Source of the DNA: Dictyostelium discoideum
Lineage: Eukaryota
Direction of reading: 5' to 3'
Assembly: GCA_000004695.1 (NCBI GenBank)
Contig: CM000150.2
Span: forward strand, 1,664,001 to 1,728,000
DNA length: 64,000 nt
Shown here: positions 21,944 through 28,745 of the stretch, piece by piece
Layout of the letters: the number at the start of each line of letters is the position of its first letter
Numbering within the stretch: the stretch's first letter is position 1
Notes under the pieces: generated by a model
Database searches by the model: none
What the model saw: only the letters and a program-made list of their open reading frames with translations
What the model was told of the DNA's origin: nothing
Position numbers and translations under genes: made by a program

Positions 21944-22060
21944 AAAAATAAAAAAATAAAATAAAAATAAATAATTAATAATAATTCCTCCCCCCCCTTT
22001 TTTTTATTGTATTATTATTTATTTATTATTTTAACATAACATTAGTTGAATTTTCATCAG

Positions 22061-22120
22061 CCGGCTTTGGCCCAATGGTAGCGCGATTGACTGTAGTATT
22101 GAAAGTGATCAATCGGTTGC
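22061..22120 (+). pseudogene. Truncated tRNA-Tyr(GUA) pseudo-copy: 5' ~60 nt of the gene with a D-stem mutation (GCCC for GCGC), no T-arm or acceptor 3' strand
   Basis: CCGGCTTTGGCCCAATGGTAGCGCGATTGACTGTAGTATTGAAAGTGATCAATCGGTTGC is near-identical to 22235..22294, including 9 bp of 5' flank (tttcatcag). It then diverges into AT-rich DNA. Confidence 0.6.
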
Positions 22121-22234
22121 AGTATAGAAAATAAAATAAATTTTTTAAAATAGAACTTTTTTTTTTTTTTAATAACATCACTCAATTTGATAAAATAGAA
22201 CCTGGACCGGTAAAAAAAATAAAAATTTCATCAG

Positions 22235-22317
22235 CCGGCTTTGGCGCAATGGTAGCGCGATTGACTGTAGTATTGAAAGTGATCAATCGGTTGCTAGTTC
22301 GAATCTGGCAAGCCGGA
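22235..22317 (+). tRNA. tRNA-Tyr (anticodon GUA) with an 11-nt intron 3' of position 37
   Basis: Cloverleaf: acceptor CCGGCTT/AAGCCGG, D-arm GCGC-AATGGTA-GCGC, anticodon stem ATTGA/TCAAT, loop CTGTAG[intron TATTGAAAGTG]A, variable CGGTT, T-arm GCTAG-TTCGAAT-CTGGC, discriminator A. A T-run follows. Eukaryotic tRNA-Tyr genes universally carry an intron at this position. Confidence 0.85.
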
Positions 22318-22324
22318 CTTTTTA
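22318..22324 (+). terminator. Pol III terminator T-run after tRNA-Tyr
   Basis: cttttta directly after the discriminator base. Confidence 0.5.
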
Positions 22325-23651: not shown

Positions 23652-24221
23652 CAATAAATAAATAACATTTATTATAAAACAAATTAATTTATTTAATTTT
23701 ATTTGTTATATATAATTACCAAAATAGTAACAATTTATTATTTTTTTATAATATTCTCTCTTTCTTTATTTCTATTGATATTGCTATTGCTATTAATTTT
23801 TTAATTTGTAGTTGTTTGTTTAATTAAAATAAGTCATCTGTTGACCTTCTCAACTGTTATTATTTGATAATTTCTTTTCTTGGATTGATACATAATCCTT
23901 CATATGATTAGACTTACTGAATCAATTACCGAATAACCAAACTTTTTTCTAAATTTTTTTTTATTTTATCGTTGTAACTAGGAGTGTTACTTTCACTTTG
24001 GTAGAGGTATCTTTCCAATTTCCAAGATTTCTGTGGTAGTTCTCTTGTCTTTAGGTTTCATAAGTTTAGGCAATCATTGATATAGTTGTTTTGTCTTCTT
24101 TGTGATAGAAATTTAATCAAAAAATCAAAATTTTTTTCAAAAAAAAGGCTCCTATGACAATTTAATCAAAAAATCAAAAAATTTGAGTTGGTTTTACCAA
24201 AAAAAAAAAATATTCAAAAAT

Positions 24222-24293
24222 GGCTCCTTAGCATAGTGGTATTGCGCTTCCCTAGTAAGGAAGAGGTCATGAGTTCGATCCTCATAGGAGCCT
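24222..24293 (+). tRNA. tRNA-Thr (anticodon AGU)
   Basis: Acceptor GGCTCCT/AGGAGCC, D-arm GCAT-AGTGGTA-TTGC, anticodon stem CTTCC/GGAAG with loop CTAGTAA, variable AGGTC, T-arm ATGAG-TTCGATC-CTCAT, discriminator T, then TTTTTTTT. Confidence 0.85.
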
Positions 24294-24320: not shown

Positions 24321-24332
24321 GGGTTCGAATCT
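24321..24332 (+). promoter_or_regulatory. External B-box (GGGTTCGAATCT) ~28 bp downstream of tRNA-Thr
   Basis: Near-perfect copy of the B-box consensus outside the tRNA body. Confidence 0.55.
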
Positions 24333-24399
24333 TGATTGGAAATGAATTAGTTATCATTGTACAGAAAAAAGAAATAAACGAGAATTTATACATATAATA

Positions 24400-27300
24400 A
24401 ATAAATCACTGTTATATCTTCACCGCCACATTCATTCCTCTTAATTTTACCCTTTTTTTGCTCAATAAAGCAAGGGCTATCGTCTTCTATACTTTTCAAC
24501 AATGGCTGGTGATCACTCAACTGAATTACAGTTAAATCATACAGATAACATCACAACCAATACAAATAATACCTCCACAACCTCAACAACAAAAAACAAA
24601 AGTGCAAAAATCGACACACCTGAAAAACAAACCCCAACAAACCAACTCTCACTAAACAAAGGACTTGATAATCAATTAGATATCATTGCACCTCCATCAA
24701 TCACAAGACCACTCTCTTTCTTAGAAAAAAACAATAACACCATCAACATTAAGTGTTACTTTAATCAACCACACATCCTTGAAGAATTAACCTCTAAAGA
24801 TGACACAAGAATCCAACAAATTCACAAAAACATTCACAAACTCTTCGAAGATATACTGTCGCCATCAGCATTTAAAATAATTGGTGCAACTGCCTTCGTA
24901 AATTGCAACGTTGATAAATTAACTTCAATAATCAACCTTCAAAACCAACTTGCACTAAATATAGACAAACTCAATAATGAAATTTCACACAAAAGTGATT
25001 CTTCAAATAATAATAACGGGAAAAACTCATTATCAATGAGCAATCCAACCGATCCAACAATTGTACCACAAAAACCTCTACAATCCCAACCAAACAAACC
25101 AAGTGCACCAACTCCAAATACAATAAATACAAGAAGAAGCAGCAATGCCCTGACTACACAACCAGTCAATACTGGTGCTGCCAAACCTAGTAAGGTATGA
25201 GCTCAAAAATCAACTTTATAACATGGAATTGTAGAGGATTCACTGAAAACCCAAACAATCAACACAATTCCTACCAAAAAGCTGTTGACACACTACAACT
25301 ACTTATATCAAAACTTCCACCTCGTCCAACAATCTCAATACTCACTGAACTCAATTCATCACCATTACAACTTAAACATTATTTTCCCGATCACATCATC
25401 TCTGTCACCAAACGAGGAAATGGTGTAATCATCATTAACCATAACCCAAACACACTCAAACTCAAACACATATCAACAATTGATATTACCAATCAATCCC
25501 AAAACAATAAAGAAATTTCACACAAAAGTGATTCTTCAAATAATAATAACGGGAAAAACTCATTATCAATGAGCAATCCAACCATGGTAGAGCTATTTTA
25601 GCAGACGTTATATTTCCAAATCAATTACCAATTGGTATTCTTGGAATTTACGCACCAGCATCAAATAATACCATCAAAAAGAATTCATATGCAACTTCAC
25701 TACAAACACTTCTCCACAACCACTCAACAAACCCAATACCAAACCAATCCCAACATGTATCTATTATCGCAGGAGATTTCAACTCTATCCACAACGACAA
25801 TTCACTATAAGATGATATTATCCAATCCTACACATACCAACACCATTTAATTGATCAAGGTGAATTTAAAAACACTCCAACTCATACACATGGCAACAGA
25901 TTAGATAGAATATATACTCAATACAATAGAATAGACCCTGAAAATATATATACACAAGTCCACCAAATTCCATCTTCATTATCAGATCATAATCCAACCA
26001 TGAAGCAATCAATATTATCAATCATTTAATAACTAATCACAATAACACATCAATCAATCAATTTACAAACTGGTCAAAAGTAAAATCAAAAATTATTAAA
26101 ACTCTAAAAAACTATCAATATAACAAAGACAAACAAACTCAACGTTCAAAACAAATACTATTAGGAAAAGCAGCAAAATTCAAACATCTTGAAGAACAAT
26201 GCATCGCTGAATACAATATTATATGTAACAAAAACAAATTACATCAAAACCACACAAACATATTAAAAAAACATATAAATGGAGAAATACCTTGCAAGTA
26301 TCTATCAGCAATACTAAACAAAAGATCAAAACATGCAAAAATTGAATCAATCCAATATGGTAACATCATTACATCCGACCCCGACCAAATTGAAAATGCG
26401 TTTGTTGAATTCTACACAAATCTATATAGCTTACAAATATGTTGTCCAATTACTCACCAGCTCATGCCAAACACATGGCCCATCATAAAAAATGAATATT
26501 TGAATGGTTTAGACTCACCATTTATACAAGATGAAGTTGAAGCTGCAATTAAAACCTGTAACCCCAACGAATCACCCGGTCCAGATGGCGTTACAAATGC
26601 TTTCTACTTTAATCATTTAAACCAAGTTAAACCAATTCTCACTACATTATTCTACGATATACTAGAAAATCCTCACCACATCACAACAGAATTCACCGAA
26701 GGTCTTATACACACAATATACAAGAAAGGCAACCCCTTACTCATATCAAATCGTCGTCCCATTACACTTCTAAACACTGATTACAAGATCCTCTCAAAAG
26801 TAATCAATGCACGTCTTCTGAGAATACTTCCTTTCATCATCAACAACAACCAAACTGGTTTCGTACCCCACAGATTCATCATAGACAACATCATCAACAT
26901 CAATGAATAAATCAACTACCTCAAATCTAAAAACCTCCCTGGTATAATCACACTATTTGACTTCTTTAAAGCATTTGATTCTATCTCTCACCTTGTTTTA
27001 ATACTATCAAAAGAACATTAATTCATATTGGTATACCAATAAAATTAATAAATTTAATCCACAAGCTATTATTTGATTCACAAGCAAAAATTTCAATTAA
27101 TGGTAAAACCACCAGAAAATTCGATATTAAAAGAGGTGTAAAACAAGGTGACCCAATCTCAGCCACTTTATTTGTAATTGTAATTGAAATATTAGCAAGA
27201 ACAATAAATGCAGACAATACAATAATTGGATTACCAATTTCATCCAATCCACAAATTAAAATCAAATTTACCCAATTTGCAGACGAATCTACAACATACA

Positions 27301-28745
27301 ACATCAACTACGAACAACAACAATCAATCAAACATTTCGATAATTTATGTGCTAAAACATCATCATCATTAAATTTTGACAAAAGTGCAATAATAGAAAT
27401 CAACCCCCACAAAATCACTGATAAACACATAATAAACAACGTTCCACAATCAAAAAGAATACCAATAACCAAAAAAGATTAATCAGAAAGAGTCCTAGGC
27501 TATTTCTTTAATAATAATGGTTTACATAGGAAATTACCAGAAACAATGAAAACACTGAATAAATCATTAGTACTATGGAAAACTAGTGGCACACCAATAA
27601 CATATTTATCATACCTTGAAGAATTTACAAAAGATGAAGAAATTCAAATTAATAAATTAATCTCATGGTTTATGAATTCCGCAAATTCTGAATCACCAAC
27701 TCTCAATACCAATTCCATTGAAAACAACACATCAACCATCCATTCACGTGCAAAATTACCTTTGATGTGTTATGATAGATCATTAAAACCATTAAAAGAA
27801 GGTGGTTGGGGTATGTGGAATATACAATTACGAAAAGTTGCTCAAAAGAATTGGATATACAACAGATTTTTACAAATGCATATATCTGCAAACAATTCAA
27901 TATACATGATAAGTTGGATGGATCAAATCATCAACAAATCAATCTCTTCTCCATACCTTATAAAAATTAAAAAAGAATGGGAAAACTATGCAACTCAAAT
28001 TGGACATCTAAAAGATAAAGTTAAAATCCTACAACCAATATTAATAAAAAATCAAACCTCTCAAACATTAACCACAAATAATATTCCACTACCACCAACA
28101 CTCAAAGAAATCTACTCGACAATACTCAACAATCACCAATGTAAATCAAAAGACTATATTGGCAAGAAATATTCAGATCTACTTCTTACTTCGCACCAAC
28201 AATTAATACAACTATTATGGAAATACACATACGACCAACTATTTGTCAAAATTCAAAAATTAAAAGATCCAAAAGGCCGTGATACAATGCAAAGATTCCA
28301 TGCTAGATGTCTTCCGATTAATCACCTACACAACAAAGTTTGCCCCATTTGCAACAATGAAATGAATAATGATCCCTATGGTCATTTGTTTTTCAATTGT
28401 CAGCACACAATCAACTTCATAAACCACGACAAATTAAAATATTTTATATATAAAAATTGCAATGGAAACAAAAACTGGTCACTAACAAAAAACCAAACAA
28501 CAAAATTATACACTCATTTATAAACCACAAACAAACAACAAAGCATTTAAACCAGATCCAACTATCATGAATGGGGGGAGGAGACAGGGGACAGGGGACA
28601 GGGGACAGGGGGGGAGATTTGAAGTTTTTTTTTAAATTTTTTAGTCAGTTGCAAATACAAATACATTGGCATATAATAAATAAAACTATTGATTGGAGTG
28701 AAATAAATAATCCAATAAATAAAAGAGAAAAAAAAAAAAATTCCG
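24400..28745 (+). mobile_element. TRE3-like tRNA-gene-targeted non-LTR (LINE) retrotransposon, inserted ~100-200 bp downstream of tRNA-Thr; degenerate copy. Boundaries are approximate.
   Basis: ORF1 24502..25200 (T/N/P-rich, 232 aa). ORF2 starts at 25197 overlapping ORF1 with the APE N-terminus MSSKINFITWNCRGF. The APE C-terminal half is in another frame (IIAGDFNS ... RLDRIY ... SDHNP, ~25590-26040). RT motifs are split over frames: 26464..26910 has PGPDGV ... YKKGNPLLISNRRPITLLNTDYKILSKVINARL, ~26950 has FDFFKAFDSISH, and ~27100-27190 has RGVKQGDPISATLF. The C-terminal CCHC zinc knuckle is CPICNNEMNNDPYGHLFFNCQH (27546..28523). Multiple frameshifts and stops interrupt ORF2. There is an A-run near 28726. 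Confidence 0.65.

Follow-up and report, generated by a model that had tools for sequence, protein, structure and literature searches.

We conclude that a segment of ORF1 lies duplicated within the APE-coding region of ORF2 in a dead TRE3 retrotransposon copy of Dictyostelium discoideum and, judging from sequence comparison among the copies in our census, that this duplication is a copy-specific lesion. The family (TRE3) and the kind of lesion (a private internal LINE rearrangement) are both already known. The insert has no plausible function and is one among several inactivating lesions in the copy. The DNA studied comes from chromosome 1 of strain AX4; the window, by which we mean the whole stretch of 64,000 nucleotides that was analysed, has a G+C content of 21.8%. 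Coordinates refer to the window unless given in the numbering of a comparison copy, and every feature located below lies on the + strand.

The element occupies 24365-28567, limits that represent the extent of homology in blastn alignments with full-length TRE3 copy L009 and further copies. Between its start and a tRNA-Thr(AGU) gene upstream (24222-24293, found with ARAGORN) there are 71 nt; the gene has the same orientation and is the integration landmark for the element. This gap and orientation place the copy within the range of 40-150 bp downstream of tRNA genes that is reported as the TRE3 integration window (PMC5911963; PMC5006619 also treats TRE3 position). External B boxes, which TRE3 uses, follow the internal B box at a distance of about 100 bp (PMC5911963), and a B-box-like motif read from the sequence at 24322-24331, GGTTCGAATC, is a candidate for such a box.

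Both open reading frames can be traced in the element. The ORF1 (gag-like) remnant (24502-25200) is annotated as DDB_G0268596 and encodes 232 aa (P0001, 100% identical). Relative to the intact 402-aa protein (P0002, which is Gag Q9Y1H6/AAD43056), 170 internal residues are missing, and identity to that Gag is 97% across the shared parts. ORF2 starts in the -1 frame at an ATGA overlap with the ORF1 stop and survives there as a truncated 134-aa frame (25197-25601) ending in TAG at 25599-25601. The intact ORF2 product (P0009) has 1275 aa, with PF03372 (Exo_endo_phos) at residues 8-231 and RVT_1 (PF00078) at residues 502-732. In the frame-repaired ORF2 protein of the window PF03372 spans residues 8-263, and the gene model of the orthologous locus has a recorded RVT_1 match. 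P0009 clusters with Pol Q9Y1H5 (AAD43057) and is 100% identical to the ORF2 product of L001, a read-assembled contig in which both ORFs are open. At the nucleotide level the window element is 95-99% identical to L001 and the full-length copies, the products of which belong to the Gag and Pol clusters.

TRE3 elements have two ORFs, the second of which is in the -1 frame and codes for an APE endonuclease, a reverse transcriptase and a zinc-finger region. By its position downstream of a tRNA gene, its two-ORF, -1 layout with APE and RT domains, and its gag/pol identity, the element is TRE3. The first-pass annotation had named the same family, and the matches to Gag Q9Y1H6 and Pol Q9Y1H5 together with the tRNA-Thr position bear this out. 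From their GenBank records, we take gag AAD43056/Q9Y1H6 and pol AAD43057/Q9Y1H5 to be TRE3-A sequences. Database names give these proteins as 'gag' and 'pol' only. The subfamily is probably TRE3-A, a letter that we assign from the large size of the protein clusters (13 and 29 members) and from the abundance of TRE3-A. TRE3-A is the most abundant TRE3 (PMC5006619; PMC5911963). Like TRE3-A, this copy has two ORFs joined by an ATGA overlap, an ORF2 in the -1 frame, APE and RT domains, and a start downstream of a tRNA gene; unlike intact TRE3-A, it carries a 510-bp deletion, a 101-nt insertion, a 79-bp deletion, five small indels and stops, and has lost its last 557 nt and poly(A).

The duplication was noticed as a 73-bp ORF1 segment recurring almost identically downstream in the APE-coding part of ORF2. 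A 72-mer confirms the recurrence: the + strand of the window contains it exactly twice, at 24979-25050 and 25512-25583. With a repeat finder each member of the pair grows to 79 nt, at 24972-25050 and 25505-25583; the two differ by one mismatch and have a spacing of 533 bp. In 100 dinucleotide-preserving shuffles, no match to the 72-mer was found when as many as 3 mismatches were allowed. The first-pass annotation had thus pointed to the right sites, with copy 1 displaced by about 9 nt, copy 2 by 1-2 nt, and a spacing of about 540 where 533 is correct. Its size of 73 bp agrees with the repeat visible in the window (about 72-79 nt) and not with the segment that was really duplicated, which measures about 101-107 nt. 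Both the size and the boundaries given there arose because the neighbouring 510-bp deletion set the visible edge of the repeat.

Repeat search and alignment to L001 identify copy 1 (24972-25050) as the surviving ORF1 source segment in its native position (L001 1017-1095), so that the earlier designation of ORF1 as the source is upheld by an intact copy. Within ORF1 it reads ...NEISHKSDSSNNNNGKNSLSMSNPT..., with 0 mismatches to intact L001 over 24975-25050 and a single difference from full-length L009, at 25029, which is common to other copies. When the element was searched with blastn against its own window, only itself and the 79-nt repeat were matched. Since the window holds a single copy of this element, the comparison copies were taken from outside it.

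Aligned to intact copies, the region of copy 2 resolves into a net insertion of 101 nt of ORF1-derived sequence at 25485-25585. Homology of the insert to ORF1 extends over 25477-25583, and the source corresponds to about 992/997-1095 of L001. The insert separates ORF2 codon 96 (D) from codon 97 (G), and this point is part of the Exo_endo_phos (APE) domain. Native proteins (P0008, P0009 and others) read ...KLKHISTID/GRAILADVIFP..., the slash marking this point, and the window reads ...HISTID-ITNQSQNNKEISHKSDSSNNNNGKNSLSMSNPT-MVELF-stop, with repeat copy 2 in the same codon phase as copy 1. Because the net gain is 101 nt, ORF2 is frameshifted (by +2), and translation ends at the TAG five codons past the insert. 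An interruption of APE with a frameshift had been proposed earlier, and both parts stand, with the site inside PF03372 and the length difference measured against intact copies.

The two edges of the insert differ in character. The left junction (J2) carries a TTGAT microhomology at 25480-25484 (7/8 with the flank), and the right junction (J3) reads CCAACC-AT-GGTAGAG. The first 27 nt of the insert (ATTACCAATCAATCCCAAAACAATAAA) are ORF1 sequence (…DINNQSQNN…) that has been deleted from the source; they are gone at copy 1 because the 510-bp ORF1 deletion ends exactly at its left edge. Since the insert retains source sequence that has since been deleted, either copying took place while the source was still intact or the rearrangements came about together. 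Two substitutions, at 25489 and 25511, are private to the insert; as a means of dating, 2 private substitutions in 99 nt against about 1% elsewhere (Poisson P about 0.25) are uninformative on age.

The duplication had been called a lesion, and it is a real one, although the element is not otherwise ordinary: this TRE3 copy has at least nine structural lesions, of which the duplication is one. Junction J1 (24972-24974, string AAACTCAATAATGAAATT) marks the 510-bp in-frame ORF1 deletion, corresponding to about L001 510-1019, with a 3-nt CAA microhomology. Past the insert, the remaining APE coding region (25586-25997) is out of frame with the ORF2 start and, on translation, contains an in-frame TAA (NDNSL*DDII). 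It ends at junction J4 (25996-25998), a 79-bp deletion at the APE end (about L001 1942-2020) with a 1-nt microhomology (A). Alignment to L001 thereby divides the element into five blocks: window 24466-24974 corresponds to L001 1-509, 24972-25484 to 1017-1529, 25477-25583 to 989-1095, 25584-25997 to 1528-1941, and 25997-28126 to 2020-4192. The rest (25998-28567), identified by comparison with full-length copies, is a decayed RT and C-terminal part of ORF2 with 59 substitutions and small indels, namely an 8-nt insertion near 26992 and deletions of 3 nt (about 27320), 45 nt (about 27591), 3 nt (about 27678) and 2 nt (about 28509).

At 28567 the element is truncated 557 nt short of the full-length copies, and its native 3' UTR and poly(A) are gone, also when compared with the 3' end of L006. 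A target-site duplication was sought by k-mer comparison, and none that is convincing was found. We interpret the missing oligo(A)-tailed 3' UTR and target-site duplications as secondary loss in a decayed copy and not as evidence against membership in TRE3. A run of 59 A residues is present at 29174-29232; the 606 bp between the element and this run are unexplained by the copies compared.

The first-pass annotation had left two alternatives, a copy-specific rearrangement or a subfamily feature, to be decided by comparison with intact TRE3 copies. The copies used here comprise four read-assembled contigs (L001-L004), four genomic copies that are full-length at 5.29 kb and share 100% identity (L009-L012, of which L009, L010 and L012 are just downstream of tRNA genes), and the older copies L006, L007, L008 and L013. 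The census as a whole covers annotated or intact-like copies plus 10 DNA loci/contigs. The second repeat copy is absent from L001-L004, L006, L007 and L009-L012, and all of these have the native APE junction, ATTGATGGTAGAG. The insertion junction strings, TTGATATTACCAATC and CCAACCATGGTAGAG, are absent from the ten other DNA copies/contigs and occur only in the window and at the orthologous L005. Likewise, among the DNA copies compared, the junction strings of J1 and J4 are confined to the window and L005. At the protein level, the native HISTID/GRAILAD junction is present in 23 annotated TRE3 proteins from two assemblies, which include members of two large Pol clusters and one sequence on four contigs; the insert is seen only in P0016, which is from the same locus as L005. 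As the insert is absent from the intact copies of this census and seen only at this locus, it is copy-specific and not a family feature. The copy-specific alternative therefore stands, and the native junction in the other copies and in the 23 proteins sets the subfamily alternative aside.

A subfamily feature could have arisen if the rearranged element had itself been a source that was mobilised in trans, with the insert as a marker of a non-autonomous TRE3 lineage. [quoted passage not shown] It is nonetheless very improbable, as both insertion junctions and the ORF1-deletion junction are absent from the 23 annotated proteins and the 10 other DNA copies/contigs, and the element is without its own 3' UTR and poly(A). 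The converse, that the insert is the ancestral state and was later lost elsewhere, was also considered and rejected; the insert frameshifts APE, and its identity to the ORF1 source is about 98%.

The arrangement might also have been created by misjoining of repeat reads in the AX4 reference. TRE copies are highly similar, and repeats are hard to assemble in a Sanger-era reference. However, P0016 and L005 both represent this locus and its flanking genes in a second assembly, GCA_054883475.1 (contig CM142508.1), and there the sequence corresponding to 24365-26100 is identical at 1736/1736 nt across all junctions. The flanks and the wider alignment differ between the assemblies by homopolymer-type indels, so we regard GCA_054883475.1 as an independent sequence. 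The same arrangement in a second assembly argues that it is not an assembly artefact, a possibility that we consider negligible and that is refuted provided that GCA_054883475.1 was not built or polished on AX4.

As to origin, we favour template switching by a polymerase on the element's own sequence, and specifically by the RT during the original target-primed reverse transcription, a reading to which we give about an even chance. Microhomology at the four junctions is 0-5 nt (CAA, TTGAT, none/AT, and A), and short or no microhomology at all four is a signature of a polymerase changing template. Which polymerase acted, when, and in one event or several is what we infer from this anatomy. Copying the RNA from 3' to 5', the RT would first have jumped from 2020 to 1941 (in L001 numbering), leaving the 79-bp deletion at J4. 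It would then have left the APE region at 1528 and landed in ORF1 at about 1095, copied about 100 nt of ORF1, and returned to APE at 1529 through the TTGAT microhomology. A last jump from 1020 to 509 would have produced the 510-bp ORF1 deletion at J1. The deletions at J4 and J1 may accordingly stem from additional forward jumps during this one pass.

A single pass of synthesis would account for the insert keeping sequence that has been lost from its source. Moreover, 3/6 of the J1-J3 breakpoints lie within one ORF1 stretch of about 104 nt, and this clustering suggests that the events are linked. Private lesions are also found in siblings: L007 has deletions of L001 207-282 and 1235-1501 and an inversion of 1890-2238. 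Such private deletions and inversion are typical of error-prone LINE integration and favour a single complex event. Counting against template switching by the RT, a clean microhomology jump is not what the right junction shows: it reads CCAACC-AT-GG, without the G expected from GAT/GAT pairing. On sequence grounds, the junctions are equally compatible with RT template switching, DNA-level templated repair, and replication slippage or replication-fork template switching.

A DNA-level event after integration is accordingly a rival that deserves weight, although we consider it rather less probable. At the APE site, which adjoins the palindrome CAATTG, microhomology-primed synthesis would have repaired a break or a stalled fork: the 3' end ...CAATTGAT would anneal to the ORF1 TTGAT 533 bp upstream, copy about 100 nt, and be rejoined to ...ATGGTAGAG. 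This would amount to a templated insertion of the polymerase-theta type, or else to a switch of template in replication, with the other deletions as independent later decay. The 5-nt (7/8) microhomology at the priming junction, with essentially none at the rejoining junction, is as this route would predict, and the template is in cis, within about 0.5 kb. The many other small indels in the copy are typical of neutral decay. The source must have been intact, and hence the duplication would precede the ORF1 deletion, which suits stepwise decay. Set against these points, three breakpoints in the ORF1 stretch of about 104 nt are unexpected if the events were independent (about 4% by chance, by our own estimate).

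RNA structure offers a further lead for switching by the RT. Directly 5' of the APE insertion point (L001 1519-1527) is a 9-mer, CAACAATTG, which holds the palindrome CAATTG; the same 9-mer occurs at L001 1100-1108, where it follows the end of the duplicated ORF1 segment by 5 nt. When a context of 641 nt is folded, the minimum-free-energy structure joins both sites in a helix of 1099-1109 with 1521-1531. The predicted pair probability of the helix is 0.43 in a context of 471 nt, 0.13 in one of 641 nt and 0.01 in one of 1001 nt. Since the pairing probability collapses in the larger contexts, we retain RNA pairing as a lead only. It is conceivable, and in our view doubtful, that J1-J4 record one highly non-processive run of the TRE3 RT, with its exit from APE possibly guided by this predicted long-range pairing. 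If this were true, the copy would preserve a natural case of template jumping in which structure guided a LINE reverse transcriptase.

The distribution of substitutions raised another possibility, namely that an older element received the block at 24975-25997 as a younger patch from an active TRE3 copy, through gene conversion accompanied by template switches. Differences from the young consensus number 6/922 in the block, compared with 14/610 upstream and 59/2570 downstream (Fisher P = 0.009 and 0.0009, respectively), and the edges of the block coincide with junctions J1 and J4. However, control copies that are not rearranged show an equal pattern. Element positions 1631-2042 are 0.5-0.7% diverged in L013b, L006 and L007, and positions 1121-1630 are 0.8% diverged in L013b, compared with 1.3-3.7% elsewhere in the controls. 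Given that the controls share the regional divergence pattern, the heterogeneity is a property of the TRE3 family and not of this copy, and a younger patch appears improbable. The notion of a mosaic age, in which the rearranged block would be younger than its flanks, was dropped on the same evidence from control copies without the rearrangement.

The favoured origin, switching by the RT during target-primed reverse transcription, has precedents. LINE copies are known to be rearranged at this step, as exemplified by template jumping of the R2 and L1 RTs, twin-priming inversions of L1, and internally deleted L1 insertions. The window element resembles LINE integration rearrangements in its private deletions and duplications with 0-5 nt of microhomology in an otherwise collinear copy, and the sibling L007, with its inversion and flanking deletions, is of the twin-priming type. 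Descriptions of simple LINE deletions or inversions are more common than those of an internal duplicative insertion, produced when the enzyme jumps forward and then back again. The present case accordingly differs from documented LINE rearrangements in that it is a duplicative insertion and that the role of the RT is putative. Templated insertions are also made by microhomology-mediated, polymerase-theta-type end joining and by replication template switching (FoSTeS/MMBIR). The insertion resembles these in its cis template about 0.5 kb away, in having microhomology at priming and little at rejoining, and in its size within a range of tens to about 100 nt.

These results explain DDB_G0268596: it is no host gene but what an internal deletion has left of ORF1 in a dead TRE3 copy. 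For the TRE3 family, the duplication is one more documented example of the private rearrangements that are common in its copies; as such it matters little, and no open question depends on the result. If there exists a strain that has the insertion of this element but not the duplication, the locus would become a small natural test that distinguishes lesions made at the time of reverse transcription from those made later at the DNA level.

The annotated gene DDB_G0268596 (24502-25200), listed in AX4 as a hypothetical protein, is the gag-like ORF1 of the dead TRE3 copy in the window, reduced by an internal deletion to 232 of 402 aa. At the orthologous locus of the second assembly, this ORF1 remnant is joined via predicted introns to fragments of ORF2, yielding a gene model of 765 aa (P0016).

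Private structures also occur in other TRE3 copies (at L007, L008, L012, and L013). The L007 copy (7860-12010), which follows a second, similarly flanked tRNA-Thr(AGU) gene on its downstream side, carries two deletions and an inversion of positions 1890-2238 of the intact reference element L001, and at L008 (8620-10710) two copies, each truncated at ~1.0 to 1.1 kb, are joined head to head. Tandem TRE3 copies are present at L012 and L013. The least diverged part of the old copies is consistently the C-terminal half of the APE-coding region: element positions 1631-2042 (window 25586-25997) are 0.5 to 0.7% diverged in L006, L007, L013b, and the window copy, compared to 1.3 to 3.7% elsewhere. This low divergence could reflect the lineage history of the master copies or a regional difference in mutation.

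TRE3 homology of the window copy stops at 28567, and no target-site duplication was found for this copy. The end of homology adjoins a G-rich, GACAGGG-type repeat (~28572-28612), which is atypical for a genome with 22% G+C, and beyond it lie ~560 bp of unassigned, AT-rich DNA and then an unbroken run of 59 A residues (29174-29232). Apart from low-complexity hits, the segment from 28568 to 29232 has no match in the TRE3 loci compared; it could be host DNA that a deletion brought next to the element, or else a different retroelement's tail.

Upstream of the element, a 26-nt direct repeat (AATTTAATCAAAAAATCAAAA..., repeat family D17; 24110-24135 and 24159-24184) sits immediately upstream of the tRNA-Thr gene, and between its copies, at ~24148, is a GGCTCCT fragment similar to the tRNA-Thr 5' end. 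The repeat and the fragment may have been left behind when this upstream region was rearranged or received an insertion at an earlier time. Farther upstream, two tandem units of family D7 (22049-22140 and 22223-22318; 97% identical) each contain one tRNA-like gene, and one of these genes was called "tRNA-??? anticodon gtag" by ARAGORN in bacterial mode. From the sequence CTGTAG + TATTGAAAGTG, the two look like a pair of intron-bearing tRNA-Tyr(GUA) genes. An identical odd call was obtained upstream of L009, a full-length TRE3 copy.

In GCA_054883475.1, four full-length copies that occupy separate loci (L009 to L012) show 100% identity along their 5.29 kb. Such identity implies that retrotransposition in the TRE3 family is very recent or ongoing.
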